This document shows, in pieces, positions 16,338-63,512 of a stretch of DNA of 64,000 nt. Below the pieces are notes generated by a model. The model ran no database searches. It saw nothing but the letters and a program-made list of their open reading frames with translations, and was not told the origin of the DNA. The DNA is from Candidatus Latescibacterota bacterium (GTDB lineage: Bacteria; Latescibacterota; UBA2968): contig OZ242010.1 in NCBI GenBank assembly GCA_965204745.1, forward strand, positions 1,440,001 through 1,504,000, written 5' to 3'. The translations under genes and the position numbers were made by a program. How positions within the stretch are numbered: position 1 is the stretch's first letter; each line of letters begins with the position of its first letter.

Positions 16338-16640
16338 TGTCAGTGGTCAGTTCCCACCCCGCACAACCCCCTTCGGTGAGAGGTGAGACGGGAGAGGTGA
16401 GACGGGAGAGGCAAGACGGGAGAGGCAAGACGGGAGAGGTAAGCGGTAAGAGGCGAGGATAGAAACGTAGGGGCGATGCCCCTGTGCCCGCCCGAAGATA
16501 AGGGCAGTGGTCAGTGGTCAGTGGTCAGTAGTCAGTCCCCGCCCAACAACCCCAAAAGGCGAGAAGCGAATTGTAGGGGCGATGCCCCCGTGCCCGCCCG
16601 AAGATAAGGGCAGTGGGCAGTGGTCAGTCCGCCCCGCACA
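16338..16640 (+). repeat. BIME-like mosaic of heptamer tandem repeats plus two GTAG REPs (16467, 16573)
   Basis: (cagtggt)n and (gagacgg/gagaggc)n runs; 16467-16625 closely matches 62049-62199. Confidence 0.8.
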
Positions 16641-24600: not shown

Positions 24601-27600
24601 GTGCGACATGTCCAACACCCTTGTTGGTTTCAATCCGCTCCCCTCACGGATGTAAGGGGAGATTTGCCGCGGATGGCCTTTCTCGTGGAGAGTTCGAGTT
24701 TCAATCCGCTCCCCTCACGGATGTAAGGGGAGATGTATTCGCAAGTGTGCCGACGTTTCTCGCTCGATGTTTCAATCCGCTCCCCTCACGGATGTAAGGG
24801 GAGATTGCTCGGCGCGCTTCTTAAGGATGGTACGCACGCCGGTTTCAATCCGCTCCCCTCACGGATGTAAGGGGAGATCACGCGCGTAAAAGCGCTGTGC
24901 TTCGATTGATTCACGTTTCAATCCGCTCCCCTCACGGATGTAAGGGGAGATGCGTCACGCAGGGCACTATATCTCGTCCCTGGCGTGTTTCAATCCGCTC
25001 CCCTCACGGATGTAAGGGGAGATCGCGCACCTTGCCAATGTGCTGGTTGCCGAATCGTGTTTCAATCCGCTCCCCTCACGGATGTAAGGGGAGATTCGGC
25101 GGGATTGATGCGACAGATAGATATTTGGCCTGTGTTTCAATCCGCTCCCCTCACGGATGTAAGGGGAGATACCTTGAGCGTGAGCGCGTGGTCAGTTGAT
25201 ATTGGTTTCAATCCGCTCCCCTCACGGATGTAAGGGGAGATTCAACCTGGGCGAAGATGGCGACATCGCAGACAATGTTTCAATCCGCTCCCCTCACGGA
25301 TGTAAGGGGAGATTCAATCAGTCTGGCCGCTACTCCATGCGGTGGGGCGTTTCAATCCGCTCCCCTCACGGATGTAAGGGGAGATTTGACCGTGCGTGGG
25401 GCGATTTCGTCTCAACGTGATGTTTCAATCCGCTCCCCTCACGGATGTAAGGGGAGATCAGGGGGCGTATCCAGCAGATTGTAAGAGACTTTGATGTTTC
25501 AATCCGCTCCCCTCACGGATGTAAGGGGAGATTGCGATTGCCACGCTCAATCTTGCTCTTTCGCAAGTTTCAATCCGCTCCCCTCACGGATGTAAGGGGA
25601 GATCATTTTTGTCTTCTTCTTCAAAGCGGTAATACTTGTTTCAATCCGCTCCCCTCACGGATGTAAGGGGAGATCGCCGACCATTGAATTATGGCGGTTG
25701 CCCTCTACGTTTCAATCCGCTCCCCTCACGGATGTAAGGGGAGATTGTCTGCGCCTACTGGCCTTATCACCGCTTTGCAGTTTCAATCCGCTCCCCTCAC
25801 GGATGTAAGGGGAGATAGTAACACTAAAAATTGTGTATTGTTGCCATTCTTGTTTCAATCCGCTCCCCTCACGGATGTAAGGGGAGATAACAGTTGCAGA
25901 GGGTTCAAAGAGATAGAGTGTTGTTTCAATCCGCTCCCCTCACGGATGTAAGGGGAGATAAATATGACCAAAATATAACCTATTTGGGTTGGGTTGTTTC
26001 AATCCGCTCCCCTCACGGATGTAAGGGGAGATTGGCAACCAGTTGGGCAGCCGCGAAAGAACATTTTGTTTCAATCCGCTCCCCTCACGGATGTAAGGGG
26101 AGATAAATCTGACCAAAATATAACATATTCGGGTAAGGTTGTTTCAATCCGCTCCCCTCACGGATGTAAGGGGAGATATCCCTTCAAATACGCTCTCTGA
26201 CTACTGGCTCTATGTTTCAATCCGCTCCCCTCACGGATGTAAGGGGAGATTACGATGCCGATCTCGCCTGTTACAACTTCGGTGCTGTTTCAATCCGCTC
26301 CCCTCACGGATGTAAGGGGAGATAAGACGATCCATAATATTGCGGTAAGACATATTTTGTTTCAATCCGCTCCCCTCACGGATGTAAGGGGAGATTCTGG
26401 GATCTCGCGCCTTGCGCAATCAATTGATGCGAGTTTCAATCCGCTCCCCTCACGGATGTAAGGGGAGATCAAGAAAAGAGAGGGACGCGGGCATATCCAT
26501 CCAGTGTTTCAATCCGCTCCCCTCACGGATGTAAGGGGAGATTTCCTGTCGCTCATAGCGAAAGACCGGCGCGGGTGTGTTTCAATCCGCTCCCCTCACG
26601 GATGTAAGGGGAGATTTGGGGCCGCTTCCGAGAAGGACGCGGAAGGACGCGGTTTCAATCCGCTCCCCTCACGGATGTAAGGGGAGATGGCATGGCGGAC
26701 CGGCAGAGCGAGGATATGAAGTTGTTTCAATCCGCTCCCCTCACGGATGTAAGGGGAGATGTGCGTGCGAGCGGAAAACTCACACAAATGGGGACCGTTT
26801 CAATCCGCTCCCCTCACGGATGTAAGGGGAGATAGAAAAAAAAGGGGGGGGGGATGGATGAGGCAAGGTTTCAATCCGCTCCCCTCACGGATGTAAGGGG
26901 AGATAGCGCGAGATCGACGCCTTTGTCGAAGAGCAGATCCGTTTCAATCCGCTCCCCTCACGGATGTAAGGGGAGATACCGACCTCGCGCTTCAATGGAG
27001 CACACAGGGCAGTTTCAATCCGCTCCCCTCACGGATGTAAGGGGAGATCAACCGCGGGTTGCGAAACTTGCGCTCGCCCATGTTGTTTCAATCCGCTCCC
27101 CTCACGGATGTAAGGGGAGATACGCGCACAGCGCGCCGGACTTGCTCCTCGACAAAGTTTCAATCCGCTCCCCTCACGGATGTAAGGGGAGATCGAATTT
27201 TTCGCACACCCTCGGCAACACCAGCAGGATCGTTTCAATCCGCTCCCCTCACGGATGTAAGGGGAGATCGGCCGAGGCGTTTGTCGATGCGCTGATCGCA
27301 CATCATGTTTCAATCCGCTCCCCTCACGGATGTAAGGGGAGATGTGATCTCGCTTTGTGCTGCGAGCTTCGCCAGTTCAGTTTCAATCCGCTCCCCTCAC
27401 GGATGTAAGGGGAGATCGGGCGCACAGGGCATGCTCACCCAGCCAATATCATGTTTCAATCCGCTCCCCTCACGGATGTAAGGGGAGATTGCCAGAACCG
27501 CAGTTTCCGGTTTGTCGTTATTTATGGTTTCAATCCGCTCCCCTCACGGATGTAAGGGGAGATCGTCACTGCAAGTCGGCGACTTCAGAAAGGTCGGTGT

Positions 27601-30600
27601 TTCAATCCGCTCCCCTCACGGATGTAAGGGGAGATTAGAAATTCGCAACCACTTCTTTTTGCGTTACGGATGTTTCAATCCGCTCCCCTCACGGATGTAA
27701 GGGGAGATTTCGTGGGCGGCGTGTTCATCTCTCCAAACACCACGGTTTCAATCCGCTCCCCTCACGGATGTAAGGGGAGATCCACCGCGCGCTCGACAGG
27801 AGCGCGATGCGGCGGCGTTTCAATCCGCTCCCCTCACGGATGTAAGGGGAGATAAAATTCCACAGAATTTGCCGAGCCGCGCTTGTTGTTTCAATCCGCT
27901 CCCCTCACGGATGTAAGGGGAGATTGCGTCCGCACACAGCGTGCGGACGGCGGCCTGTTCGTTTCAATCCGCTCCCCTCACGGATGTAAGGGGAGATTTT
28001 TTCCCTGCTTGTCCACCCACTCAAGCGTCTCGAGGTTTCAATCCGCTCCCCTCACGGATGTAAGGGGAGATATTTCTTTCTCACACGACGAAAAACTTGC
28101 GATCCCGTTTCAATCCGCTCCCCTCACGGATGTAAGGGGAGATGGGATGGTTGGGCGGTGTGCCGCCTGCGGTCGAGGGGATGTTTCAATCCGCTCCCCT
28201 CACGGATGTAAGGGGAGATCCTGGTGCGAAAAATCGGGCGCACGACCGAGTATATGTTTCAATCCGCTCCCCTCACGGATGTAAGGGGAGATTCAGATCA
28301 GCGACCACATCGGAGAGGATTGTGTTGTTTCAATCCGCTCCCCTCACGGATGTAAGGGGAGATCCCAAACATGAAAATCAAGGAAATGCTGAACACAGAG
28401 TTTCAATCCGCTCCCCTCACGGATGTAAGGGGAGATTCGACGCCTGTCGCGTAGTGATAGCGCGCGATTCCGCGTTTCAATCCGCTCCCCTCACGGATGT
28501 AAGGGGAGATTTTTGTTATGGTGTCAAAAGCTTCGGTGAGTGTATCGTTTCAATCCGCTCCCCTCACGGATGTAAGGGGAGATCTGTGCCCAGCGCGGAT
28601 CGACTTGCGAAAAATAAGTTTCAATCCGCTCCCCTCACGGATGTAAGGGGAGATTTCTGTGGTCACGCTTCCCATCGCGTACGCGGCTAAAAAGTTTCAA
28701 TCCGCTCCCCTCACGGATGTAAGGGGAGATCCGCAATACCCCCGACGTTCTGATCGCATTGAGCAGTTTCAATCCGCTCCCCTCACGGATGTAAGGGGAG
28801 ATAAAAAGCCTTGATCTCCCTCGGCTTCGAAAAGCGCGTTTCAATCCGCTCCCCTCACGGATGTAAGGGGAGATCGAACGGGTTGAGCACACGAATAAAC
28901 CTCGGAATTTGTTTCAATCCGCTCCCCTCACGGATGTAAGGGGAGATTCTCAAAGAGTGCGAGCCCATCTCCTCGCGCACAATTTGTTTCAATCCGCTCC
29001 CCTCACGGATGTAAGGGGAGATGGGCGAGCCAACGGTTGTAGGTGGAAGGGTGGAGGGTTTCAATCCGCTCCCCTCACGGATGTAAGGGGAGATGAAAGA
29101 GGATGTCATCGCCCATGTGCCCCACCCCGAGGTTTCAATCCGCTCCCCTCACGGATGTAAGGGGAGATATACGCCTTGGTGCTGATCGAAACCTTTTTTT
29201 TCCAGGTTTCAATCCGCTCCCCTCACGGATGTAAGGGGAGATTTTTCCGCAGCGCACTCGCGCACTTGGTGCCCGCAGTTTCAATCCGCTCCCCTCACGG
29301 ATGTAAGGGGAGATTTGGTACCGAGCGTGGCGGTAATCGAAAAGTCCAAGTTTCAATCCGCTCCCCTCACGGATGTAAGGGGAGATCGCGCCTGTTGGGC
29401 CGCGGCATAGTCCAAGGGTGTGTTTCAATCCGCTCCCCTCACGGATGTAAGGGGAGATTTGAGCATTGCTAAAACTCTCTTTGCTTGCATCAGTTTTGTT
29501 TCAATCCGCTCCCCTCACGGATGTAAGGGGAGATCACGCCTAACCAGTCTAAATTGTTACCCCACAGGAACTGTTTCAATCCGCTCCCCTCACGGATGTA
29601 AGGGGAGATACAGAAACCCAAAAATAGGCAACCCACAACCCTTTAGGTTTCAATCCGCTCCCCTCACGGATGTAAGGGGAGATGACAGGCATAACCAAGG
29701 TATGGCTAACCTTGCTATGTTTCAATCCGCTCCCCTCACGGATGTAAGGGGAGATAACCCGTTTGGATAACTTCCCAAATGCACCAGACCGAGTTTCAAT
29801 CCGCTCCCCTCACGGATGTAAGGGGAGATAATTTCAGTATCCAAGTCCTGCTTGACGCCTTCCCGGTTTCAATCCGCTCCCCTCACGGATGTAAGGGGAG
29901 ATTCAAATCCCTCTTGGACTTGCAAGCCCCAAGAATTGTTTCAATCCGCTCCCCTCACGGATGTAAGGGGAGATATGGTCAGCGTTATCAATTTTGATTT
30001 CAACGCTTTCCATGTTTCAATCCGCTCCCCTCACGGATGTAAGGGGAGATCTGCGATTCTGGCACCGTGCATACAGCTAGATTTCCTGTTTCAATCCGCT
30101 CCCCTCACGGATGTAAGGGGAGATTCGACCATGTCATCCCGCAGTCGCGGGGTGGGGACGTTTCAATCCGCTCCCCTCACGGATGTAAGGGGAGATAGCA
30201 GACGGGGTGATTTCCGGCCACTTTAATGATCGGTTTCAATCCGCTCCCCTCACGGATGTAAGGGGAGATGGTTTGACCTTCGAGTTTTTTGAACTCTTCG
30301 CGCAGTTTCAATCCGCTCCCCTCACGGATGTAAGGGGAGATACGAAGACGAAAATGGTTGGGTCGACGACAACGACGTTTCAATCCGCTCCCCTCACGGA
30401 TGTAAGGGGAGATGCCCGGGCGACCATCACAGCGCGAAGTGTGACATGTTTCAATCCGCTCCCCTCACGGATGTAAGGGGAGATTCACGGTTTCCAACTT
30501 GGCTCGCTGACCAACATAGGTTTCAATCCGCTCCCCTCACGGATGTAAGGGGAGATTTGGGCGCGTGAACTCAACGCTTGCAAAAAAATTGTGTTTCAAT

Positions 30601-32744
30601 CCGCTCCCCTCACGGATGTAAGGGGAGATGCGTTTCGAGATTCCCAGACCCGGGGGGCGTGCCGGCTGTTTCAATCCGCTCCCCTCACGGATGTAAGGGG
30701 AGATCGCGGGGCCGTCTGGGCGCACCAACATCGCGGATGTTTCAATCCGCTCCCCTCACGGATGTAAGGGGAGATTCCCGCGAGCATCGACGGATCGGCG
30801 TACCTGGTGCCGGTTTCAATCCGCTCCCCTCACGGATGTAAGGGGAGATACAGCGGGGCAACTCGACAGCATGATCCCCGTCGAGTTTCAATCCGCTCCC
30901 CTCACGGATGTAAGGGGAGATAGATTCAGATCCCGCACAGGATGTGATCGCGATGAAGTTTCAATCCGCTCCCCTCACGGATGTAAGGGGAGATTGGGTT
31001 GGGTGCGATAGAAAGCAAGTACATCCAAGTTTCAATCCGCTCCCCTCACGGATGTAAGGGGAGATAAATGCCCCGGCCTGATGAGGCCAGAGAGGGCCGA
31101 GTTTCAATCCGCTCCCCTCACGGATGTAAGGGGAGATCGCGCACGCAATATGTGTGACCGAGATCGCGGCAAAGTTTCAATCCGCTCCCCTCACGGATGT
31201 AAGGGGAGATCGCCCCGCAAATTTCGTACACGCGCTTGAGATCGCGGTTTCAATCCGCTCCCCTCACGGATGTAAGGGGAGATAAAATGGCTGGATTCGT
31301 ACTCATCAGTCGGCTGCTGTTTCAATCCGCTCCCCTCACGGATGTAAGGGGAGATAAGACGCGGATCAAACGGACGGCGACGCGGACCAAACGGTTTCAA
31401 TCCGCTCCCCTCACGGATGTAAGGGGAGATATCACGGGTCGGCCGGTACTTGGCATCCTCACTTCCAAGTTTCAATCCGCTCCCCTCACGGATGTAAGGG
31501 GAGATATGAGACTCGCCCTTTCCGAAGACCTTGTGAGCATTGTTTCAATCCGCTCCCCTCACGGATGTAAGGGGAGATCGCCACAATGCGATCCGACTCC
31601 CACTGGCCAGACGCGAGGTTTCAATCCGCTCCCCTCACGGATGTAAGGGGAGATACAACAGGCCCGAAAAGCTGATGATGCCACCCAAAGTTTCAATCCG
31701 CTCCCCTCACGGATGTAAGGGGAGATAAACAGGCGCGCCGTCTCCGCATTGACAATGGCATGTTTCAATCCGCTCCCCTCACGGATGTAAGGGGAGATGA
31801 TGCCTCACAACCGCCGCCTTCGCCTTCTCCTCGGTTTCAATCCGCTCCCCTCACGGATGTAAGGGGAGATTTGGCCTGCAAGTCCAAGATGCACCTGAAC
31901 GACGCCCGTTTCAATCCGCTCCCCTCACGGATGTAAGGGGAGATCAAGGCGGGGTCGATTTGAGCGAATCGGACCCCATCGTTTCAATCCGCTCCCCTCA
32001 CGGATGTAAGGGGAGATGCATCACGAAAAATCAGCGCGGCCGCGACCTGCGTGTTTCAATCCGCTCCCCTCACGGATGTAAGGGGAGATATGTCATTCCT
32101 TGCTGTGATTGATGGTTTGAAAGACTTGTTTCAATCCGCTCCCCTCACGGATGTAAGGGGAGATTCAATGAGGGTGATGCGCTGATTTTTTCGTCGCTCA
32201 TGTTTCAATCCGCTCCCCTCACGGATGTAAGGGGAGATAGCAGGCCGCGGCGGTGGTGCGCGAGCTAGGAAAAGTTTCAATCCGCTCCCCTCACGGATGT
32301 AAGGGGAGATTTCGCGCTCGCGCTCGCCTGGTTCATCGGTATCGAGTTTCAATCCGCTCCCCTCACGGATGTAAGGGGAGATCGAGGCATTCCAGCGCAT
32401 GGTGCGCGGCATTTCAAGTTTCAATCCGCTCCCCTCACGGATGTAAGGGGAGATTTACGCTTGGAAAGGTCGCGACATCGCTCGGACAGGTGTTTCAATC
32501 CGCTCCCCTCACGGATGTAAGGGGAGATTTTATACGCGCTCTCGATGGCCTTTTCCGCGCTCGTTTCAATCCGCTCCCCTCACGGATGTAAGGGGAGATT
32601 CGATTTGGTGCATTTTGTTGCTGTGTTTCATCTCGGTTTCAATCCGCTCCCCTCACGGATGTAAGGGGAGATTGATCCTCTCCTCGCTCCTCGATGAGAG
32701 ATCCGCAGTTTCAATCCGCTCCCCTCACGGATGTAAGGGGAGAT
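18657..32744 (-). CRISPR. Type I-C CRISPR array, about 195 repeats (estimated from ~72-bp periodicity); transcribed repeat ATCTCCCCTTACATCCGTGAGGGGAGCGGATTGAAAC
   Basis: 37-bp repeat with 33-39 bp spacers; ATTGAAAC 3' end on the minus strand; variant repeats concentrated at the left (trailer) end; leader on the right next to cas2. Confidence 0.99.
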
Positions 32745-32969
32745 GCTGGTTGTTGTAACCAGCGGCACAACAAAAAGTTACACAAGCGGATGCGCGAACC
32801 TCCTTCCTTTGCTTCAATCCGCTCGAAAAGTAAGAGGGAATATTGCGATGTAAATTGTTATTGGTCATAAGTTTAGTCCATTGCGCGAAAGCACGGGCAA
32901 AATGCCATCACTCCCCTTTCGCGCCAAAAAATAATTCAAGCCGATCTCCTCATCGGATCGAGGAAAGGG
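32745..32969 (-). promoter_or_regulatory. CRISPR leader
   Basis: AT-rich non-coding region between cas2 and the first repeat; contains GCGCGAAA..TTTCGCGC and GGTTCGCGC motifs. Confidence 0.85.
32811..32841 (-). repeat. Degenerate CRISPR repeat inside the leader
   Basis: Minus strand ATTCCCTCTTACTTTTCGAGCGGATTGAAGC versus consensus ATCTCCCCTTAC...GAGCGGATTGAAAC. Confidence 0.6.
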
Positions 32970-33260
32970 CTAAAGAATAAGCGGCTCGTTTAGGTCTATG
33001 GGTTCTTTAAGCCCGTGATGCTCCGTCTTGTTTTTGGCGTTTTCGTCCAGATGGTAAAACCTCAGGGAATCCTGCTTGGGATCGATTTCTTTTAGCAGAC
33101 GATCCCTGAGTGTTGCCCATTCCGTTTTTCCAAGTTGGCATTCAAAAAGCGATTTTTGAGCGCGAACACCGTAATCCTCACAGGCTCTTGCCACTCGGCG
33201 CAACCGCTTTTGCCCGGCGCGGTCAGATGTGGAAACGTCATAAGCGATCAAGACAAACAT
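32970..33260 (-). CDS. cas2: CRISPR-associated Cas2
   Basis: MFVLIAYDVST..KRLRRVARAC..QKSLFEC..DSLRFY. Confidence 0.96.
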   Translation of the reverse strand: MFVLIAYDVSTSDRAGQKRLRRVARACEDYGVRAQKSLFECQLGKTEWATLRDRLLKEIDPKQDSLRFYHLDENAKNKTEHHGLKEPIDLNEPLIL

Positions 33261-33298
33261 GTTCGATCTCTTTCCCTTATCCACAAAGGGAGATGGGG

Positions 33299-34360
33299 TT
33301 ATTTGTAGATGAATGGGATATAGTCGGGGATATCGCCGCGGAGTTTTCGGGCCAACAATTTTGATTGGATGCTGAACACTTGCCCGATGCGGATATTTTG
33401 CTTGAACAAGGGATGCTTGATTTCCGTTTGTTTGCGCCGTTGCCAAGCTCGGATGACCTCTCTCCTGCCCCGGTCGGTAAATTCCACAGCACCGCCTTCT
33501 CGCACGCGAAAGTGTTTGGCCTCAATTTGGCGGCGGTTGATCAGGGTCAACGCCAGCCGCTCTGCCAAACAGGGGCGAAATTCTTCCATCAGATCCAAAG
33601 CGCAGGCTGGCCTCCCGGCCCGCGTCGCATGAAGCCAGCCGACATAGGGATCCAGCCCGGCAGTCGTCAACGCGGCCAAACAATCGTGGCGGATCAGCGC
33701 GTAAATGAAGGAAAGCAAACAGTTGATTCGATCCCGAGGCGGACGGCGCGTGCGCGTTGTGAACGCGAAGGTTTCGCGCTGTTGTTTGAGCATGTGTTGA
33801 AAGACCGAAAAATAGATCTTGGCCCCAAGGCCCTCAAATCCCCGGATCGGGTCGAGTGCCTCTCGGAGCGTGCGATCTGACGTAGCAGACGGCGCGTTGC
33901 CGAGTTGGCGAATCAGCCTGGCGAGTTCGGCAACAGCATCCGACAATGCCGTGCGATCCGAATCCCGATCTGCTTCCCGGGCGGATCGCAAGAGGTTTGC
34001 ACGCGAGTTTTGCAGTTTGCCGGCGACGAACTGCTGGGCAATGCGGGCCGCATCCTCTGGGCTATCCGCCGCGGCGTACTGCGCACGGCGCAACAAGTAG
34101 CGCGTGTCGCCACTGCCAATGACCTGTGCCAGCAGATAGCCGCTCTCCGTGTGATAATGCACTGCCACTTGGTGTTGCCAGCACAATGCCATCGCCGGCG
34201 GCGTGACCACGACTTGCCCAAACGCGCAGATGCTTTCCAAGTGGTGAATCGGCACGCGCAAGCGGGTTTGCCTTTCGATTTCGACTCGGAGCGTCAGATG
34301 ATCTCGGTGTACCACTGTCTTGGGCGTCGTCAGGTAAAGGGTGTTTTGAATCTCGGCCAT
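33299..34360 (-). CDS. cas1: CRISPR-associated Cas1 (I-C)
   Basis: NTLYLTT, RGFEG, RTRRPPRDRINCLLSF, GLDPYVGWLH, LDLMEEFRP; start at ATG 34360. Confidence 0.97.
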   Translation of the reverse strand: MAEIQNTLYLTTPKTVVHRDHLTLRVEIERQTRLRVPIHHLESICAFGQVVVTPPAMALCWQHQVAVHYHTESGYLLAQVIGSGDTRYLLRRAQYAAADSPEDAARIAQQFVAGKLQNSRANLLRSAREADRDSDRTALSDAVAELARLIRQLGNAPSATSDRTLREALDPIRGFEGLGAKIYFSVFQHMLKQQRETFAFTTRTRRPPRDRINCLLSFIYALIRHDCLAALTTAGLDPYVGWLHATRAGRPACALDLMEEFRPCLAERLALTLINRRQIEAKHFRVREGGAVEFTDRGRREVIRAWQRRKQTEIKHPLFKQNIRIGQVFSIQSKLLARKLRGDIPDYIPFIYK

Positions 34361-34370
34361 AATGTCCTCT

Positions 34371-34406
34371 GTTTCAATCTGTTCCCTCACGGATGTCAGG
34401 GGAGAT
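34371..34406 (-). repeat. Solitary CRISPR repeat between cas4 and cas1, overlapping the cas4 stop codon
   Basis: Plus strand GTTTCAATCTGTTCCC-TCACGGATGTCAGGGGAGAT, 33/37 match to consensus. Confidence 0.9.
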
Positions 34407-35046
34407 ACACGTCCCGATAGGCCCGCGCCAGTGCAGAAGGGGCACTGGTGATTTCGGGCAGGCAATGATCAAAAAGCGAACACTCCGAACACTGGGGTTT
34501 GTGAATGGCGTTGGGGACTGCCTCCGCTTCGACGAGCCGATGCACGGCTTCAACCGCCTGTTCGGTGAGGCGGCGCAGTTCCTCGGTAAATACCACCTCT
34601 CGGCGGTGCTTGCTGCTCGCATGGAAGATGGCCCCTCGGGGAATGTCCAGCCCAAACATTTCTTCCAAGCACAGGGCTTGCGCGCAAAGTTGGGCATCGT
34701 CATTGTCAAATTTTCGTCGGCGACCCTTTTTGAACTCAACCGGAAACAACGATCCGTCGGGATGGCGTTCGACGATGTCGCACCTGCCGCTGAGCCGCAG
34801 CCGATCTGACCAAACGGGCAAGGCACGCAACAGCGTCACACCCCCAACCGTTTCGTAACCAGAAACATCGGCCTGCTCGTGGAACTGATTACCTACCAAG
34901 GTGTGTTCGTTGTCGCTAAAGGTGCCTTCGACATGAATCAGGGCAGCCCGGCGCGGACAATAAAGATACTGGTTGATGGCAGAGAGCGGGATGCTCCGAT
35001 CTGCATCATCTGATGGACTAGGCAGAACAACCATTGCTTTACTCAT
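34396..35046 (-). CDS. cas4: CRISPR-associated Cas4
   Basis: YCPRR, GRCDIVE, PVEFKKG, QLCAQALCLEEM, CSECSLFDHC. Confidence 0.96.
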   Translation of the reverse strand: MSKAMVVLPSPSDDADRSIPLSAINQYLYCPRRAALIHVEGTFSDNEHTLVGNQFHEQADVSGYETVGGVTLLRALPVWSDRLRLSGRCDIVERHPDGSLFPVEFKKGRRRKFDNDDAQLCAQALCLEEMFGLDIPRGAIFHASSKHRREVVFTEELRRLTEQAVEAVHRLVEAEAVPNAIHKPQCSECSLFDHCLPEITSAPSALARAYRDVYLP

Positions 35047-35083
35047 GTTTTAATCCGCTTCCCTCACTGAGGTAAAGAGAGAA
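35047..35083 (-). repeat. Solitary CRISPR repeat between cas7 and cas4, abutting the cas4 ATG
   Basis: Plus strand GTTTTAATCCGCTTCCCTCACTGAGGTAAAGAGAGAA, 30/37 match to consensus. Confidence 0.85.
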
Positions 35084-35094
35084 GCGGACTTGCT

Positions 35095-36051
35095 TTACTC
35101 ATGACGTTTATTCAAACGCACGCCGGCAGGCAGGTCGGTGTCGTCCCATCCGCAGTTGACCTCGTAATCGGCAAAAGATTTGGGAAATTCCACGCCATCC
35201 TTCAACTTCACCTCAATGCCCTCAAAGAGTTTGTGGGCATGAGCGCAACCGAGGCGGGCTTCTCGCCTGTTCTGCGCGGCGTTGTTCTCGTGCTGAGTGC
35301 CCACATGCTCAAAGTCGTAGATGCCGCGCACCACCATTTCGCCGCGAGCAGCGGAGCGGTCGTGCTCAAACATGTGGTTGAGCGCGTCAAAGAGAACCTC
35401 GAGGTCAGCGTTGGTGAACCCCGTGCGTTCGGCAAAAGCAGGAGACACGTAAGCCTTGGCCATATAGAGGGCGTAAGGCACAATGTGCTTATTGCCCATG
35501 GTGCGTTCCTTCTCGGCGTCCTCCTCTTTGGTCACGGCCATGCGAGTGATGGAGATCTCCATCGGGGTGATAGAATGGTACGATTGACCGAAGGTGATCT
35601 GTACCGGACCGCGCACTTGGCCCCAAGCGGAGCCTCTCATAATGTCGTCGCCGACAGAAAGCACACCACCAAAGGTGCGGACATCAAAGAACTCGCGGCA
35701 CAGCCATTTCATGGCGGCTTCCTGCTTTTCGGATTTGGACGCACCCGAGGCCAAGCCCTCACCGCTTTTCTCAATGCCATTATTGATCTCGTTGTTGAGC
35801 ACGGCGCCCTGCTTGATCAGCAGATTATAGCCGTTGGCACCATTCTCCCCAACCCGCTCCGGGGCGAACATTTCGACGAAGTTCCGCACTTTGCGCTTGA
35901 GGCACACATCGGAGACGATGCCACGGTTGGTATTGGGATCAAGACGCGGCATGTTGCCGGCATCGGGATCGCCATTGGGGTTGCCATTCGTGACCTCGAA
36001 GATCAGCAACACATCGTGCCGATTGGTGAGAATGTCGTTGATTTCGTTCAT
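35095..36051 (-). CDS. cas7: Cas7/Csd2 (I-C)
   Basis: NGNPNGDPDAGNMPR, SDVCLKRKVRN, FFDVRTFG, GQVRGPVQ, FEHDRSAARG. Confidence 0.97.
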   Translation of the reverse strand: MNEINDILTNRHDVLLIFEVTNGNPNGDPDAGNMPRLDPNTNRGIVSDVCLKRKVRNFVEMFAPERVGENGANGYNLLIKQGAVLNNEINNGIEKSGEGLASGASKSEKQEAAMKWLCREFFDVRTFGGVLSVGDDIMRGSAWGQVRGPVQITFGQSYHSITPMEISITRMAVTKEEDAEKERTMGNKHIVPYALYMAKAYVSPAFAERTGFTNADLEVLFDALNHMFEHDRSAARGEMVVRGIYDFEHVGTQHENNAAQNRREARLGCAHAHKLFEGIEVKLKDGVEFPKSFADYEVNCGWDDTDLPAGVRLNKRHE

Positions 36052-36072
36052 CGTTCAATCTCCTGTCAGGGG

Positions 36073-36489
36073 TTATTGGTTATCGGCTTCTTTGTTTTGC
36101 TTGGCCGCGTCGCGGGCGACGCGGTCGGCGGCTTTTTGCTGGTAAAAGCCGATGGCGAACCGCCCCTGCGCGTGCAGGTCCAGCGTGCGGGGGAATTGGT
36201 TGACTTGGGTCAACACATCTTGAATGGCTTCGTCGAGGAAACGCTCATGGTTTTCATATTTGTCGGACTTGCCGATTTTGCTGAGGTGATGGCGGTTGAG
36301 CTTGAGGAGGATGGGAAACACCGAGGCCGGCGAGGCCATGGCGGTGCCAAAGTACCGTTCGACAACGCCAGCACCTTCAAGCTTATAGTCATGCGCCTTG
36401 GCCTGAGTTTCGGCGAGTACGGCGAGCAACCGCCCGCATTGATAGGCCGCATCGCCCGCATCGGCGGTTTGTCTTTCTGCAATTTCCAT
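36073..36489 (-). CDS. cas11: Putative internally translated Cas11c small subunit
   Basis: In-frame ATG at 36489 preceded by AAAGGACG, at the start of the C-terminal helical domain of Cas8c. Confidence 0.65.
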   Translation of the reverse strand: MEIAERQTADAGDAAYQCGRLLAVLAETQAKAHDYKLEGAGVVERYFGTAMASPASVFPILLKLNRHHLSKIGKSDKYENHERFLDEAIQDVLTQVNQFPRTLDLHAQGRFAIGFYQQKAADRVARDAAKQNKEADNQ

Positions 36490-37926
36490 AATGTCGTCCT
36501 TTCTGTTTCGGTTTAGAATGAGTTTCGCCAAGGCGAAACGGGAATGGTTCAATAATGCCGTGCTCCCATCGCGCGCTATATCAACGCGCAGGCGGTTCAG
36601 CATGGGATGCAGTAAAGTGAGTGAAGGGGCAACACCTTCTAGTGCTGCGCGAAACAACTGAGCGGTCACTTCCGGTTGCAAATACTTCGCCTCTCGCACC
36701 GTAGTACAGGCCAGTCGGAATAGGGCCAACGGCGGCATTTTTTCCTTGCCGGAAGACGGGCGTACAGGCTCCAACTCAAGGTCGCTGAACCAGCGTTGCA
36801 GGTTTTCCGTAGCGGTTTCTAAGGTGGTCTGAATCCAGTGGCGCACGACGATCCGACCACTGTTGCCCGCGAGGGTGACAGCATGGAACTGCTCCTGCCG
36901 CAATGCCTCGCGCTCTTGACCAGACCATGGGGATTTGAGGAAATCCGCCACCGCCTTGGGGTCAGCTTGGTTGAGTAAATCACTCCAAGTGCTCGTGGCG
37001 TTCGTTTTGTTGCGAGTCCAGAAGCAACACGATGCCTGCCCCAAGCGAATGGAATGATCCTCACGACCAAGCATCCAGTTAAGCGCGGTGCAATAGGCGG
37101 TGACCGCCCGGGTGGAAGTGGAAGCATTGAGACTTTGCTCAAAACCGTAAGAAACGAAAGCATCCTTATCAAATGAGACAATCGCCGCACCAAAGGCTTG
37201 GGTGTTGGGCACGCCTTGCACTTTGGGGTTATGAGTCAGTGCAATGGGCTGATCGCGTTCACCAGTGATCAAGCAGTGACCGTGAGGCGCGTCTGTCTCA
37301 TGGGCTTCATTTTCCTTCTCGAATTGCCGCCGCCAAAAGGGCCTGATGTGGTTTTCGTCTTCCAGCAACAATTGTTCTCTCAAGCGGAATGAGAAATTGT
37401 CATTCCCTAACTTGACTTCCTCGCCATCGGCTTTGGTGATCCACCAAGCGGATTTTTCTTGTGGCTTGGGATCGGAACTGGTACCCCAGCGCAAAAAAGA
37501 TGGCATCTGCCCCGGCTCGGGCTTGAAAGCCAGCAGGGACTTCAATGCCTGACTGCGTGTGTCCCCATGGGCCTGTTCAATTTGTGCCCAAAAGTCATCG
37601 TATTTCCGGCAATTGTTTTTTATTCGATCCTTCCGCTGGTTTTCAGACATGGATTTTTCCGGGTCCGTATCGAGACCGAATACAGCCGTGATGCTGTCCG
37701 CCATGAACTCGGCCACGCCACCGGCATTCTTGGGCCGCGTGGTTTGCGGGCAACTAAATTCTTTTCCTTTTCCCTTCCTTTCTCCCACAGTTTCTACGGG
37801 ACCCTGTCCGACAAAGTTGCCCATATCGTCCAGCGCGATGATCCATCGCACCGCTTTGGATTTGAAAGCCAAATTGTCGAGGAGTTTTCGCGAAATTGCA
37901 AAGTCGTACAGATGTTTCAGCAACAT
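36073..37926 (-). CDS. cas8c: Cas8c/Csd1 large subunit
   Basis: CLITGE, AIVSFDKDAFVSYG, NSGRIVVR, AYQCGRLLAV, QGRFAIGFYQQ; start at ATG 37926. Confidence 0.94.
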   Translation of the reverse strand: MLLKHLYDFAISRKLLDNLAFKSKAVRWIIALDDMGNFVGQGPVETVGERKGKGKEFSCPQTTRPKNAGGVAEFMADSITAVFGLDTDPEKSMSENQRKDRIKNNCRKYDDFWAQIEQAHGDTRSQALKSLLAFKPEPGQMPSFLRWGTSSDPKPQEKSAWWITKADGEEVKLGNDNFSFRLREQLLLEDENHIRPFWRRQFEKENEAHETDAPHGHCLITGERDQPIALTHNPKVQGVPNTQAFGAAIVSFDKDAFVSYGFEQSLNASTSTRAVTAYCTALNWMLGREDHSIRLGQASCCFWTRNKTNATSTWSDLLNQADPKAVADFLKSPWSGQEREALRQEQFHAVTLAGNSGRIVVRHWIQTTLETATENLQRWFSDLELEPVRPSSGKEKMPPLALFRLACTTVREAKYLQPEVTAQLFRAALEGVAPSLTLLHPMLNRLRVDIARDGSTALLNHSRFALAKLILNRNRKDDIMEIAERQTADAGDAAYQCGRLLAVLAETQAKAHDYKLEGAGVVERYFGTAMASPASVFPILLKLNRHHLSKIGKSDKYENHERFLDEAIQDVLTQVNQFPRTLDLHAQGRFAIGFYQQKAADRVARDAAKQNKEADNQ

Positions 37927-37928
37927 GG

Positions 37929-38732
37929 TCAGGCTCCGTTCGGTTCGAGGATTTCGATTTCGTCGGGGTGGCAAACCAAGGTGGAATCTATGATCTTGGC
38001 ACGGAAGAAACAGGCTCTCGGTCGGGCCAATTCGCCGACACAACGCGGGGTATTCTTTTTCGGTTTGGGCCCTAGTTCATCAGGGCGTTTCCAGCGAAAG
38101 CCCTGGGCGCGGGCGTTAGGCGAAAAAACATCGTAGAGCATCAAGCCCAAGTCCTCCTCGGGTTGCCGCCAACTGGTGCCAAGTTCGGTGGTTCGATCTT
38201 CCAGGGAGGCTTGGGGATCATCTACCCACTCGAAGTCCGCCGCAAATTCGCGCATGCCCAAGGCGGGGCGGTGGAAGCACTTGCCCTGCTGGGCGCGGCG
38301 TTTGAATTCAGCCAAGTACTTCACTGGTGGGTCGGTTTTGGGATTCGCCAACGGCGTGGTACGCAACTCGGCACTGATGATGTACTCCACCTCCTGCAAT
38401 GCCAGCATGTTGCGCTGGGTGCCGGCTGGTGCGCCGCCCCCGGCCTCAATGGGCGAGACTTTCTCCGGCTGTTTCATCCATTGACCAACATTGCGAATGC
38501 TGATAACTGATTGCACTTCATTGCGCCGAATCGAGGCCCAGCGACCTCGCCGAATTATCCGGATGGTAGCGACGAGATAGCGAACTTGCGGCTCCCAAAA
38601 GATGGCCTCCAAGATGCCTCGGGCAACAGAAGGCGTCATAATTGGGTAACTGACGCGCTCCACTTTCATTTCGGGGCGCGTGAAACATGCCCAATCGCCC
38701 CAAACTCTCAGGTGTACTTGGTTATCTTTCAT
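37929..38732 (-). CDS. cas5: Cas5d (I-C)
   Basis: WGDWACFTRPEMKVERVSY, IRRNEV, GKCFHRPALGMREF, DLGLMLYD. Confidence 0.97.
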   Translation of the reverse strand: MKDNQVHLRVWGDWACFTRPEMKVERVSYPIMTPSVARGILEAIFWEPQVRYLVATIRIIRRGRWASIRRNEVQSVISIRNVGQWMKQPEKVSPIEAGGGAPAGTQRNMLALQEVEYIISAELRTTPLANPKTDPPVKYLAEFKRRAQQGKCFHRPALGMREFAADFEWVDDPQASLEDRTTELGTSWRQPEEDLGLMLYDVFSPNARAQGFRWKRPDELGPKPKKNTPRCVGELARPRACFFRAKIIDSTLVCHPDEIEILEPNGA

Positions 38733-40972
38733 AACAAAAAATCCTCAGTCGGATGTTGGTCAACAACTACGCCGAGATGTTCGTGATAGGCGGCCTCTCT
38801 GAGTACATACAGTTCCATACCGGGCAACAGCGGGCAAAGCAACCCCATTGCGTAGAGTTTTTGAAAATCACGCGAATGCAGATTCACCATAAAGCGTTGG
38901 AGACCGCGCAAGTCCTTGCGCGTAAAACGCGGCCCATCTTGGGTGCGCTCCCGGATCGCGGCGACCTCTTTTAAGGATTCCCCCCAGGGCGCAATGACGG
39001 CCCGGGTGTCATCGCTAATTACCTTCGCTTTGCGGGCCACTTCTCGGAAACGCAACTCTTTTCGATCTTCCTGAATAGAGCATTCCCGTTTGACATGATG
39101 ATCCGTGGGCACGTATTCAAAAAGCTCTCTAAAGTAACGCCCAAACAACGTCGGATCGCCAGACAAATCGTCCGTATCCAATTGATCCAGCAACCGCGCC
39201 GCAATGTCCGTGGCGACGCGATAGACGCCGACTGGCAACTTGGCGTCCATTGGCCGGAACACCACCACGCGCCCCTTGCTCGGCAGGCGTCCTTCCCGAT
39301 TGCACCGCCCTGCTGCCTGCACAATGGAGTCCAGCGGCCCCAAGGCGCGATAAACCAACGGGAAGTCGATATCCACCCCGGCCTCTACCACCTGCGTAGA
39401 AACCAACCAACAAAATCGGCCTTCCCTTAAACGCCGCCGAACCTTTTTAATCACTTGGGTTCGGTGTTCTGCACACATAGCAGACGAAAGGTGCAATACA
39501 CTCCTCAACTTGGCTTCCAACTCATCTTCTCTCAAGCCTTGCTCTTTCAAAGAATCCCTCAATAGTTCCCACCATTCGGCGGCCTGCTTGCGCGTATTCA
39601 CCACCCCCAAGGCTCGAGGTTCGCTTATCCATTCCGCAGCCAATTCCGACCAATCGCTCTCTGTCTTTCGCACCTCGTACACTACCCGCCCCAACTCGTT
39701 AAACAAATCGCCGGGTTGCGATACAATTTCCTTTACTTCATTCGCATCAAACCCCTGCGGCAACGATGGGCTTTGTCTAAAGGCCGGTTGGGTAGCCGTG
39801 GAAAAAACAAAACTCACTCGGTAGTGTTTCTCGAGATCGCGCAATACATGTAGCAATGGATCGAGCAGATGTGAAGGCAAGGTCTGCACCTCATCCAGCA
39901 ACACCACGGAATTTGCGATGTTGTGTAGTTTTCGGCACTTGGAGGTGCGGTTGGCAAAGAGGGACTCGATGAACTGCACCGAGGTGGTGACGATGATCGG
40001 CGCGTCCCAGTTCTCCGCCGCCAACTCCTCGGGGGACCGACCTTGTTCGTCATTATCATCTTTTGAAGCCACGGCCGAATGGTGCTCAATCACAATGCCT
40101 CTGTTTTTCGGATCGAGCACTTTGCGGTACTCGGCGGCGTTTTGCTCGATAATTGACAGGTACGGTATGACCACGATCACCCGTTGCATTCCATGCCGCC
40201 GCGCATGTTCCAAGGCAAAGGCCATGCCCGAAAGCGTTTTGCCCCCACCTGTCGGCACGGTCAGAGAAAAGAAGCCCGCTGGCTCTGCCGCCTTTGCCAA
40301 GCACTCTTCAAACACCCTGTTACGCAACGCATTGAGTTCGCCAGAAGAATCAAACTTGCCCCGGTGCGCTTGCAGTCGCTCCAGCAACGACGTTGCATCC
40401 AACTTCACCGAGCGTCGTTCTTGGCCGCGGCTAAATTGTTCCGTATCCAGAAAATCCGCATCCACCAAGCAGGAAAACAACATTCGCACGTAGAATTCTG
40501 TGATGGCGGGATCGTCAAATTCCGGTTCGGCTAACTCGTTGGGAATTTTGCCCAGTTCCTCTTCAAACCGGTTGACCAGAGGATCGAGCCCGTTCATAGC
40601 ATCGTACTTTTTCCCATAAACCAATGCCTGCAAATCGCTCAAGTCATGCAACCCCGCATGATGCCCGGCAACGGCAAAAGCTGGGCCGCCCCACCCTCGT
40701 TGAAAAGCCAGCGCAGCACCATACACCGCATGATGTGTTTCAGCGGATACAAGGCGTTTGCCTGCCAGATATTCTTGGAATGGCTGCCGATATTTTCCAA
40801 GGTCGTGCAACAGACCTGCGAGGTGGGCTTCATCTGCCAACCCAAAGGGAGCGGCGAATTGTCGGGCCAATTCCGCGACATTGTGCAGATGGGTAGAAAG
40901 CAATTGCCAGCGCGATTGATTCGGATCGCGTTCTCCGGTCTCTGTTTCGGCTGTGTGGGCGTAATAGTTCAT
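38729..40972 (-). CDS. cas3: Cas3 HD-nuclease/helicase
   Basis: LHDLGK, GHHAGL, VDADFLDT, PTGGGKT, DEVQ, STAT, QAAGRCNREG. Confidence 0.97.
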   Translation of the reverse strand: MNYYAHTAETETGERDPNQSRWQLLSTHLHNVAELARQFAAPFGLADEAHLAGLLHDLGKYRQPFQEYLAGKRLVSAETHHAVYGAALAFQRGWGGPAFAVAGHHAGLHDLSDLQALVYGKKYDAMNGLDPLVNRFEEELGKIPNELAEPEFDDPAITEFYVRMLFSCLVDADFLDTEQFSRGQERRSVKLDATSLLERLQAHRGKFDSSGELNALRNRVFEECLAKAAEPAGFFSLTVPTGGGKTLSGMAFALEHARRHGMQRVIVVIPYLSIIEQNAAEYRKVLDPKNRGIVIEHHSAVASKDDNDEQGRSPEELAAENWDAPIIVTTSVQFIESLFANRTSKCRKLHNIANSVVLLDEVQTLPSHLLDPLLHVLRDLEKHYRVSFVFSTATQPAFRQSPSLPQGFDANEVKEIVSQPGDLFNELGRVVYEVRKTESDWSELAAEWISEPRALGVVNTRKQAAEWWELLRDSLKEQGLREDELEAKLRSVLHLSSAMCAEHRTQVIKKVRRRLREGRFCWLVSTQVVEAGVDIDFPLVYRALGPLDSIVQAAGRCNREGRLPSKGRVVVFRPMDAKLPVGVYRVATDIAARLLDQLDTDDLSGDPTLFGRYFRELFEYVPTDHHVKRECSIQEDRKELRFREVARKAKVISDDTRAVIAPWGESLKEVAAIRERTQDGPRFTRKDLRGLQRFMVNLHSRDFQKLYAMGLLCPLLPGMELYVLREAAYHEHLGVVVDQHPTEDFLL

Positions 40973-59592: not shown

Positions 59593-60570
59593 CTAAACAT
59601 CCCCCGCCACGCGGTCGTAGAAGGACACGTATTGATCGCGGTTGTTGCCGTCGAGGAGGGACATGGCTTCGCGGGGGTGTTGGTTGTGCTGACCGGTGAT
59701 ATTGTAGGGCACGAGAGGCCCCCACGTCATCTCGCGGCGCAATTTGACGAAATGCGCTTCCAACAACTGATAGACCGGGCGAACCTTGAACTTGGGATTA
59801 CGCAGAAACCCGAGTAGCAATTCCATCGGACAATTGCCCGCGCCGCGTCCCAAGCCATCCACAGTGGCATCCACCCGGTTCGCGCCCAAAATAATGGCTT
59901 CGATGGTATTGGCAAAGGCCAGTTGCTGGTTGTTGTGTGCGTGAATGCCCACCTCTTTGCCCGTAGTGTGGGTGGCGTCCAGATATTTTCGCACGAGCAT
60001 ATCCACTTGTTCGCGGTACAGCGCGCCAAAGCTATCGACAACGCATATCGTACCCACCGGGGTTTCCAGCAGCACTTCCAATGCCTGATCGATCTCCACA
60101 TCTTGCACGGTCGAAATCGCCATGATATTGCAACTCGTTTCGTACCCCTTCTCATGGGCATCGCACACCATTTCAACGGCCTCGGGAATTTGCTCGACAT
60201 AGCACGCCACGCGCACCATATCGACCACGCTCTCGCTGCTCGGCAAAATGTCTTTGGCCCAATCGCTCTTGCCCGCATCGGCCATGATCGCCAGTTTCAT
60301 GCCCGTGGCTTCGGGGTCGTGATCCCCGGTGATTTTGCGAATGTCCTCTTCGTCGCTGTGCCGGAACGCGCCAAATTCCGCCGGGGGAAACATCTCTTTG
60401 GAGTTCCGGTACCCGATCTCCATGTAATCCACGCCCGCCGCAACGCAGGTTTCGTACACGGCTTTGACAAAATCATCGCCAAAATGATGGTCGTTCATCA
60501 GACCGCCATCCCGGATCGTACAATCGAGTACTTTGAGTTCCGGGCGATACGTAATCCAAGGTGCCTTCAT
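59593..60570 (-). CDS. HMGL-like / aldolase catalytic-domain (DRE-TIM) protein
   Basis: LDCTIRDGG, VDSFG, HAHNNQQLAFAN, GLGRGAGNC. Confidence 0.88.
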   Translation of the reverse strand: MKAPWITYRPELKVLDCTIRDGGLMNDHHFGDDFVKAVYETCVAAGVDYMEIGYRNSKEMFPPAEFGAFRHSDEEDIRKITGDHDPEATGMKLAIMADAGKSDWAKDILPSSESVVDMVRVACYVEQIPEAVEMVCDAHEKGYETSCNIMAISTVQDVEIDQALEVLLETPVGTICVVDSFGALYREQVDMLVRKYLDATHTTGKEVGIHAHNNQQLAFANTIEAIILGANRVDATVDGLGRGAGNCPMELLLGFLRNPKFKVRPVYQLLEAHFVKLRREMTWGPLVPYNITGQHNQHPREAMSLLDGNNRDQYVSFYDRVAGDV

Positions 60571-61982: not shown

Positions 61983-62198
61983 AGTGGTCAGGCCGCCCCG
62001 CTCAACCCCTTCGGTAAGACGTAAGAGGTGAGACGTAAGAGGTGAGACGTAGGGGCGATGCCCCTGTGCTCGCCCGAAGATAAATGCAGTGGTCAGTAGT
62101 CAGTAGTCAGTGGTCAGTCCCCGCCCAACAACCCCAAAAGACGAGAAGCGAATTGTAGGGACGATGCCCCCGTGCTCGCCCGAAAATCAGTGGTCAGT
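61983..62198 (+). repeat. BIME-like mosaic (heptamers plus REPs at 62049 and 62155)
   Basis: Matches 16467-16625. Confidence 0.8.
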
Positions 62199-63360: not shown

Positions 63361-63512
63361 AAAAGGCGTGAGAGGCAAAAGGCGTGAGAGGCAAGATGTG
63401 AGAGGCGAGAGGCGTGAGAGGCAAGACGCGAGAGGCAAGACGTGAGAGGCAAGACGTGAGAGGCGAGACGTGAGAGGCAAGACGCGAGAGGCAAGACGTG
63501 AGAGGCGAGAAG
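63361..63512. repeat. Heptamer tandem array (gtgagag/gcaagac)n
   Basis: About 20 consecutive 7-mer units. Confidence 0.9.

Follow-up and report, generated by a model that had tools for sequence, protein, structure and literature searches.

The type I-C operon of clustered regularly interspaced short palindromic repeat (CRISPR)-associated genes in a 64,000-nt stretch of a Candidatus Latescibacterota genome (contig OZ242010.1; "the window" below is this whole stretch) carries two solitary copies of its own array repeat, one directly before cas4 and one between cas4 and cas1. Both elements are genuine, worn, repeat-derived copies of the array repeat, and copies at adaptation-gene junctions are a recurrent, clade-specific feature of related loci. 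The explanation that we tentatively prefer is that these copies were born of recombination and kept as 5' leaders of the adaptation genes, tuning their expression. The mechanism by which a single operon provides scarce Cas1, Cas2 and Cas4 alongside plentiful effector proteins is poorly understood, and the known autoregulation by repeat-like RNAs operates in trans, on the promoters of effector genes. This type I-C family represents a concrete candidate for post-transcriptional control of adaptation, in which the handle of the CRISPR RNA (crRNA) even appears to supply the start codon in some members.

Solitary repeat copies in the cas operon

The copy before cas4 (35047-35083, minus strand; TTCTCTCTTTACCTCAGTGAGGGAAGCGGATTAAAAC) is identical to the array repeat (ATCTCCCCTTACATCCGTGAGGGGAGCGGATTGAAAC) at 30 of 37 positions, and its handle, CGGATTAAAAC, directly adjoins the cas4 ATG at 35046. 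The copy between cas4 and cas1 (34371-34406, minus strand) is identical at 33 of 37 positions with a one-base gap. It encodes the last codons of cas4, and a TGA (34398-34396) in place of the TTA of the repeat provides the stop of the cas4 open reading frame (ORF); its end lies 10 nt before the cas1 ATG (34360). The two copies, hereafter the cas4 copy and the cas1 copy, are 640 nt apart and share the orientation of all 194 array repeats. The cas4 copy has a CACTGA variant that occurs in only 2 of the 194 array repeats, both at the trailer end (18657 and 19138), and in all five repeat copies read at one array end of the closest relative, genome G018; the variant is thus probably ancestral, and the loop base of this copy is of the ancestral ATCA type. 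An earlier reading of the window, made from the sequence alone, had described the identities, positions and orientation of both copies, the cas4 stop created by TTA>TGA and the CACTGA variant shared with the oldest trailer repeats, and alignment to the array repeats bears out each of these observations.

To place these similarities in a genomic context, a repeat profile built from 23 related repeats was searched against the array-masked 5.48-Mb genome. Only three matches had E<0.1: the cas4 copy (nhmmer E 0.01), the cas1 copy (E 0.0018) and one remote copy. Relative to random windows of the locus, the cas4 and cas1 copies score at z 12.3 and 15.2. Significant similarity to the genome's own repeat outside the array, the mark of a repeat-derived solitary unit, was thus found for the cas4 and cas1 copies and not for the sequence at 33261-33294. 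The latter (minus strand; ATCTCCCTTTGTGGATAAGGGAAAGAGATCGAAC) is a candidate third copy between cas1 and cas2, which abuts the cas2 ATG and is strongly decayed; it is identical to the repeat at 23 of 37 positions, which is not significant alone (z 1.1; 8.5% of random windows score as well), and at 26-28 of 34 positions to the clear copies in loci L037 and L054, at the same junction, and in L034. An Rfam scan gave no match for the cas4 or cas1 copy, and only the first array repeat gave a weak match, to CRISPR-DR9.

The remote copy lies outside the window and 1 Mb away (G000:C1:2440192-2440228, plus strand; match position 2,440,204; 30/37 identical ungapped; nhmmer E 0.0033). Its loop carries the ancestral ATCA base and its 3' half is perfect; the copy is intergenic with no start codon behind it, and has no tRNA nearby in an aragorn search. 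It could be all that is left of an earlier array site or of a mobile element. Also outside the window, the 11-mer CGGATTGAAAC occurs about 20 times at regular spacing (G000:C1:1892380-1919502, plus strand) inside a large tandem repeat region; the likeness is probably coincidental, arising from a coding unit that is repeated there.

Strain variation across the copies was examined in contigs of four DNA runs (X3, X4, X10 and X11), and no joined form without either copy was found in these contigs. Positions 34371-34406 are without differences in all four runs, and 35047-35083 has a single difference, 35047 G>A in X4, with X10 not covering this part; in the flanking genes as many as 24 of 1001 positions vary (X11), and the 73 nt of the copies carry no statistical weight in this comparison.

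A direct duplication of 13 nt, ATGAGTAAAGCAA, flanks the cas4 copy on both sides. The upstream member (35090-35102, minus strand) contains the stop codon of cas7 (TAA, 35095-35097) together with a cas4 start no longer in use, and the downstream member (35034-35046, minus strand) is the first 13 nt of cas4. In orthologues without the insert, cas7 and cas4 overlap as ATGAATGA; a 56-nt insertion split these overlapping genes, and the stop/start overlap therefore had to be duplicated. Because the overlap forces the duplication, it is not read as a transposase signature, and a transposon-like insertion with target-site duplication was rejected given that the duplication lengths at cas7|cas4 vary across loci (13, ~9, 8 and ~10 nt).

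Recurrence at adaptation-gene junctions

To determine whether these copies are particular to one genome, we used Cas4 and Cas1 as probes against species-representative genomes and metagenome contigs. The module of cas4-cas1-cas2 with a 37-nt repeat array proved common to many Latescibacterota-labelled and other metagenome-assembled genomes, and a clade set of 37 non-redundant loci was defined by Cas1 identity of 70% or more and by arrays of this 37-nt repeat family. An nhmmer search of these loci with arrays masked (357 kb of non-array sequence, both strands) returned 31 matches at E≤0.1, 16 of which are imperfectly masked array ends. The other 15 fall at cas7|cas4 (5 sense and 1 antisense, the latter being the opposite strand of one palindromic copy), cas4|cas1 (6) and cas1|cas2 (3), and none lie elsewhere, including before cas3, cas5, cas8 or cas7. 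At all three junctions the sense matches, 14 in total, adjoin a start codon or come close to one, and in most cases the last repeat base is immediately before the cas4 or cas1 ATG (relative end -1 or -2).

A uniform alignment test (400 random windows per locus, cutoff z≥3.5) identified copies at cas7|cas4 in 6 of 37 loci, at cas4|cas1 in 12 of 37 and at cas1|cas2 in 7 of 34, with at least one copy in 19 of the 37 loci. The position of the copies is thus conserved, and in the closest relative (locus L030 of G018, Cas4 93% identical) both copies stand at the same places. Recurrence at the same junctions in relatives, which the sequence-only reading had put forward for checking and which is here found in about half of the clade, shows that the copies are not a one-off accident. 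By comparison, 24 canonical I-C loci (Cas1 35-58% identical) contain zero copies.

Several further observations were made in these loci. In G018 (L021 / L102) the cas operon is whole with both copies, a large array of the same family (258 pattern matches) lies ~300 kb away, and no array is found within 8-9 kb on either side of the operon. Three loci have doubled handles before cas1 (L030:6681-6693, L046:6713-6721 and L057:6716-6733), in which a full copy is followed by a partial 3' repeat end of 9-18 nt. An antisense 12-mer, GGAGCGGATTGA, corresponding to the start of the handle region, occurs in effector genes ~4.7-4.8 kb upstream of cas4 in L030, L033, L035, L038, L041, L042, L051 and L057; these matches are weak (E 3-5 each) and may be conserved coding sequence only.

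Start codons and translation signals

In addition to the copies that abut an ATG, there are loci in which the TTG of the handle (GGATTGAAAC) is itself the start codon. In L046, an in-frame stop precedes cas1 and the next start codon to follow it is the handle TTG, which is likely also the cas1 start in L043 and L057; in L046 and L057 the second, doubled handle likely holds this TTG. The handle TTG is likewise the likely start of cas2 in L037, L050, L053, L054, L055, L064 and L070, where the frame reads TTG AAA CTG ATC... in place of the usual ATG TTT ATC CTG ATC.

Spacing of the repeat G-run is consistent with this assignment. The window genome is strongly Shine-Dalgarno-using, with GGAG-type cores mostly starting at -12 to -9 and peaking at -11/-10 (3591 long ORFs). 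The G-run of the repeat lies at -8 from the handle TTG, and in cas2 copies a change of GGGGAG to GGAGAG puts GGAG at -10, which is optimal. Judged from frame and spacing, the TTG-class copies serve as true ribosome-binding sites, supplying both the start codon and the Shine-Dalgarno sequence. As the TTG has been recruited as a start and GGAGAG placed at optimal spacing, at least some copies are functional gene parts.

Folding and conservation of the copies

Transcribed, the array repeat (AUCUCCCCUUACAUCCGUGAGGGGAGCGGAUUGAAAC) forms a 10-bp stem with a 4-nt loop followed by the 11-nt handle CGGAUUGAAAC, with a predicted folding energy of -17.4 kcal/mol (z -4.0). In the cas4 copy, C6>U and C8>U keep the stem as U.G pairs and G24>A gives one C.A mismatch, in agreement with the sequence-only reading, and the 37-mer alone folds at -7.2 kcal/mol compared with -17.4 for the array repeat. 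RNAfold of the 40-mer 35047-35086 predicts an extended hairpin (CGCUUCUCUC / GAGGGAAGCG; 35056-35086, minus strand) at -16.1 kcal/mol, in which the 3' arm and the initial two bases of the handle are paired with the linker. In this model the hairpin would be longer than that of the repeat, and the putative Cas5c cut-site bases would be paired, because the 6-nt left linker complements the start of the handle. The individual copies that fold well are those of L039, L046 and L030 and the window cas4 copy with its flank.

Conservation was assessed by columns, with 13 cas1 copies set against 68 four-fold degenerate sites in the cas1 genes next to them; this analysis was preferred to pairwise ungapped identities, which understate stem-loop conservation owing to insertions and deletions. 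The mean majority fraction is 0.87 for handle columns and 0.75 for four-fold sites, and conservation of 75% or more is reached by each of the 11 handle columns as opposed to 60% of four-fold sites (binomial P 0.004). The handle, the best-kept part of the copies, is the part read by Cas5c enzymes, which according to the account in PMC8524198 recognize the site of cleavage and the handle downstream of it and not the loop. Retention of only the 3' part of the copies fits this mode of substrate reading by Cas5c, and also fits any constraint from translation initiation.

Origin of the copies

The genomic context of the copies suggests how they arose. Three effector types are interleaved on the Cas1 tree, namely the I-C type of the window, canonical I-C (Cas7 ~42% identical) and a divergent cas5-cas8-cas7-cas3 arrangement, and adaptation and effector modules have therefore often recombined. 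The cas1 copies share a signature, GGGAAC, that is absent from the arrays, which have GGGGAGC, and descent from an old copy is therefore favoured. The window cas1 copy combines this signature with a loop peculiar to the window lineage, and the cas1 copy of L057 is preceded by ~36 nt homologous to the end of its own leader (z 11.9). This leader remnant is significant in 1 of 29 flanks tested (L057 cas1 only), and the CAGC/CAGT before cas2 copies is too short to count as one. The lineage-specific loop and the L057 leader piece point to old copies having at times undergone gene conversion by the leader-proximal repeat.

Insertions of another kind are present at the same junctions. A retropepsin-like aspartyl-protease ORF (Pfam PF13975, E 1e-7) is inserted at cas7|cas4 in L033 (5537-5986) and at cas4|cas1 in L034 (about 6665-7057), with a duplicated flank in each case; in L034 the ORF is followed by a duplicate of part of the cas4 3' end. 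These junctions therefore tolerate or attract insertions.

Self-derived spacers were considered as another route. Among 1976 spacers from the window and the related loci, compared with the genome and the masked loci, no match to a cas gene exceeds the 15-19 nt expected of chance, and an origin through spacers taken from cas4, cas1 or cas2 is unsupported (0/1976).

Evaluation of the proposed role and its alternatives

In the explanation that we prefer, the leader-proximal repeat of the adjacent array would have been the source, through recombination or gene conversion, of copies placed repeatedly in sense orientation immediately 5' of the cas4, cas1 and cas2 start codons, so that the 3' half of each copy (the G-run and 11-nt handle) would become the 5' leader of the downstream gene. 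For the ATG-abutting class, such as the window cas4 copy, tight translational coupling would be exchanged for a poor, structured initiation site, and poor initiation would keep adaptation proteins low. Binding or cutting by Cas5c or Cascade at the copy could separate or cover the initiation signals and further repress cas4, cas1 and cas2. That Cas5c or Cascade does bind or cut the copies, giving feedback, is doubtful. A specific form of this idea, in which the copies are operators whose handle mimic is bound by Cas5c, alone or as a Cascade seed, at the cas4, cas1 and cas2 starts, with translation repressed whenever the protein is not busy with precursor crRNA (pre-crRNA), appears rather unlikely.

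Several findings weigh against a retained role in expression. No significant copy is present in 18 of the 37 loci, and the element is therefore dispensable. In ATG-abutting copies the G-run lies at -15, and in the window cas4 copy at -19 inside the hairpin; these positions are at the edge of or beyond the Shine-Dalgarno window, and a role as ribosome-binding site is therefore weak for this class. The window cas1 gene has its own Shine-Dalgarno sequence, GAGGA, at -9/-8 within the 10-nt spacer AGAGGACATT (34361-34370, minus strand) that separates it from its copy, at the distance usual in this genome. Many single copies fold no better than shuffled sequences, the window cas1 copy is without one base of the 3' arm, RNAalifold found no consensus hairpin for the cas1 and cas2 copy sets, and for the cas4 set it found weak structure only, with no compensatory pair. 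Stem-loop columns (0.72) show no constraint relative to four-fold sites (0.75). The extra conservation of the handle is modest, coming from 11 columns in 13 related sequences; in some loci it is partly coding or initiation context, and occasional gene conversion from the array could mimic it. The self-regulation proposed in the sequence-only reading therefore survives in part: recurrence in orthologous loci speaks for it, and the neutral stem-loop, the missing consensus hairpin and the separate cas1 Shine-Dalgarno sequence speak against any role that depends on the hairpin.

A distinct possibility is that the copies are neutral relics, scars of array-gene recombination during module exchange that are seen at these junctions because insertion elsewhere in the packed operon would be lethal, and that subsequently decay. 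All decay states are represented, from 33/38 (L039) to 23/37 (the window cas2 candidate), the stem-loop evolves at the synonymous rate, and copies are patchy on the Cas1 tree with almost half of the loci lacking one. The interleaving of three effector module kinds on that tree and the leader fragment carried by the L057 copy give real support to this alternative, which the sequence-only reading had listed as array relics of module exchange; the protease cargo gene with its duplicated flank at the same junctions and the decayed copy 1 Mb away with no gene behind it point in the same direction. Decay alone does not readily account for a handle more conserved than four-fold sites, for a handle TTG recruited as start with the G-run altered to GGAGAG at optimal Shine-Dalgarno spacing, or for the placement of 14 of 14 sense matches at or near start codons of three junctions. 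Even neutral copies record the places and the manner in which arrays recombine with cas genes, with leader-repeat junctions copied into the operon, a process that bears on the shuffling of adaptation and effector modules.

It is unlikely that the principal effect of the copies is on message processing, with Cas5c cutting the polycistronic mRNA at the copies and splitting effector and adaptation messages of differing stability (a hairpin cap at the 3' end of cas7, and cas4 and cas1 messages with short leaders). This idea, close to the cleavage suggested in the sequence-only reading, would agree with the sense orientation and gene-boundary location of the copies and with the retention, in most of them, of the handle and its first bases (CGG or CAG). 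A Cas5c-type protein is encoded by all three linked effector variants, and no Cas6 was found in the set of ORFs inspected, namely the cas operon of the window and 8 upstream ORFs from L039 and L043. A Cas5c substrate should have a stable stem adjoining the handle and conserved downstream bases; in the copies the handle is kept, stems are weakened or shifted, and the hairpin needed by Cas5c is not conserved. In the window cas4 copy the predicted hairpin would pair the cut-site bases, and cas1 copies mostly have A in place of the closing G (GGGAAC).

Regulation by the copies as transcriptional signals finds no support, since scans found neither a promoter-like site in 32600-36200 nor a terminator-like site at the copies.

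The copies might instead act at the DNA level, as recombination sites or Cas1-Cas2 docking sites for cassette swapping of cas4, of cas1-cas2 or of whole modules, which we regard as very unlikely. Their positions coincide exactly with the boundaries of modules, effector types have been reshuffled with respect to Cas1, and the right edge of every copy is a repeat-spacer boundary, where the Cas1-Cas2 integrase acts; the inclusion of leader sequence in the L057 copy is also compatible with such a function. However, loci with the other two effector types are without a copy upstream of cas4, where exchange must happen, the marks expected of integration, an insert of spacer size or a doubled pair of copies, were not seen, the only doubling being that of short handles (L030, L046 and L057), and the spacer set contains no cas-gene match.

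Most improbable of all is a CreR/CreA-like guide, in which a copy and the following gene sequence would mature into a crRNA-like RNA that steers Cascade to a partial match and blocks transcription, because there is no second repeat at spacer distance to form a mini-array (the neighbouring copies being 640 nt apart), no conserved target and no seed-anchored, promoter match flanked by a protospacer-adjacent motif, in a region lacking promoter-like sites. Partial-match mini-arrays do regulate cas genes in other type I systems, as described in the texts of PMC10120712 and bioRxiv 10.1101/2023.03.10.532045, and behind the window cas4 copy the would-be spacer (ATGAGTAAAGCAA...) is matched over 13 nt by a GTC-flanked site at the cas7 end, 56 nt upstream. 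This match is explained by the duplicated stop/start overlap, and it shrinks to 8 nt or breaks in the seed in L030, L041, L057 and L070. Would-be spacers of the cas1 and cas2 copies are without a seed match in the cas locus, and the only other match in the window is a single one of 10 nt, to the seed of the cas1 copy, at 60349. The related suggestion that the copies make cas4 resemble a giant spacer finds no support beyond geometry.

Operon, array and leader of the window

The gene set cas3-cas5c-cas8c-cas7-cas4-cas1-cas2, in that order on the minus strand, identifies the window system as type I-C by NCBIfam, with matches above cutoff for Cas5c, Cas8c/Csd1, Cas7/Csd2, Cas4, Cas1c and Cas2 in addition to Cas3 domains. 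The operon begins with cas3 (HD and helicase; 38729-40972; TIGR01587 / TIGR01596) and cas5c (Cas5d), the presumed pre-crRNA endonuclease (37929-38732; TIGR01876, E 7e-33), followed by cas8c (Csd1; 36073-37926; TIGR01863, E 5e-99), whose start is taken to be the ATG right after the cas5c stop, and cas7 (Csd2; 35095-36051; TIGR02589, E 7e-87). The adaptation genes are cas4 (34396-35046; TIGR00372, E 4e-36), cas1 of the type I-C Cas1c family (33299-34360; TIGR03640, E 7e-127, above cutoff) and cas2 (32970-33260), for which TIGR01573 matches residues 63-154 of ORF 32970-33446 and the ATG at 33260 is taken as the start. The cas4 start at 35046 is assigned from the ORF and its orthologues, and a second in-frame ATG is present at 35034. 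No cas6 occurs in this operon.

A 225-nt leader (32745-32969, minus strand) separates cas2 from the array of 194 repeats of 37 nt (18657-32744, minus strand). The window repeat has the form expected for type I-C, a hairpin followed by an 11-nt 3' tail ending ATTGAAAC, and a tail of this kind is typical of Cas5c-processed repeats; its length is 37 nt compared with 32-33 nt in 23 of the 24 canonical I-C loci (the exception, L072, has 37 nt). The window Cas5c aligns with solved Cas5d / pre-crRNA processing endonucleases in the PDB (E 1e-39). The catalytic triad of Cas5c is given as Tyr/Lys/His in the text of PMC8524198; candidate triad positions, mapped without confidence, vary among the three Cas5 variants of the clade.

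Within the leader, a handle-like 14-mer, GAGCGGATTGAAGC (32813-32826, minus strand), followed by GGAGG, lies ~70 nt ahead of the first repeat; taken by itself the 14-mer lacks significance (E 39). Similar GATTGAA..GGAGG motifs occupy the same leader position in several relatives, and the last ~55 nt of the leaders are well conserved. One array spacer (21126-21160, minus strand) is matched exactly over 26 of its 35 nt at 3056222, 3848851 and 5434645 of the same genome, a partial self-match presumably to a repeated element. The window also contains tandem arrays at 16375-16536, 62013-62118 and 63363-63510 with 7- and 14-nt units (GGTGAGA, CAGTGGT and AAGACGTGAGAGGC).

Comparison with known systems

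Repeat-like elements that stand alone within cas loci have been described before, and a subset of them act as regulatory guides (Shmakov et al. 2023, PMC10120712). The copies described here share with those elements, as characterized in the text of that work, their nature as degenerate repeat copies outside the array, inside cas loci and conserved among related loci. Solitary units are thought there to arise from recombinogenic repeats and to be sometimes exapted. The elements that the same text describes lie next to cas3 (I-E, I-D and I-F1), cas6 (I-B) and cas12a, in long intergenic regions, and are often two-repeat mini-arrays aimed at promoters; cases beside cas3, cas6, cas8 or cas12a act on promoters. 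In contrast, the copies of the window clade are single, are fused to the starts of cas4, cas1 and cas2, and occupy short junctions. The text of PMC10120712 mentions I-C once and does not discuss adaptation-gene junctions. Repeat copies at adaptation-gene start codons are likewise not described in the texts of PMC10120712, of PMC9067536 (a survey of structured RNAs in CRISPR operons) or of PMC8616872 (a broad review), or in full-text literature searches, supplementary tables not being covered. The new element is therefore the fusion of single copies to adaptation-gene starts; standalone repeat-like elements in cas loci are already known.

CreR and CreA (bioRxiv 10.1101/2023.03.10.532045 and PMC8501985) resemble the present case in that degenerate repeats allow Cas proteins to regulate cas or linked genes. 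As presented in those texts, they are trans-acting guides with two degenerate repeats, a spacer-sized segment and partial complementarity to a promoter. The copies of the window clade have no second repeat and no conserved target, so that any action would be in cis on the mRNA. The phage RNA anti-CRISPRs (Racr), in the account given by PMC10651486, are also solitary repeat mimics that potentially bind Cas proteins, but they reside on mobile elements and inhibit the host system, whereas the copies here lie in the host's own cas operon and overlap coding sequence.

Should the operator form of the proposal be true, it would represent a cis-acting, RNA-mimicry feedback linking crRNA load to adaptation, and would differ from the trans-acting CreR and tracr-L circuits, which act on transcription. 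In ribosomal-protein operons, an mRNA leader mimics the rRNA binding site and the protein represses its message when the main ligand is saturated. The parallel is an analogy only, as a ribosomal protein regulates its own operon segment and Cas5c would regulate the downstream adaptation genes.

A functional likeness exists with engineered Cas6/Csy4 mRNA hairpins (PMC4604432 and PMC13478208), in which, as those texts describe, a repeat hairpin in the leader makes stability or translation dependent on the endonuclease, as is proposed here. Those hairpins are synthetic and use Cas6f; the copies in this clade are natural, lie in a cas operon and would involve a Cas5c-type enzyme, with a putative action. 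The copies would be a natural counterpart to synthetic Cas6-hairpin translation switches.

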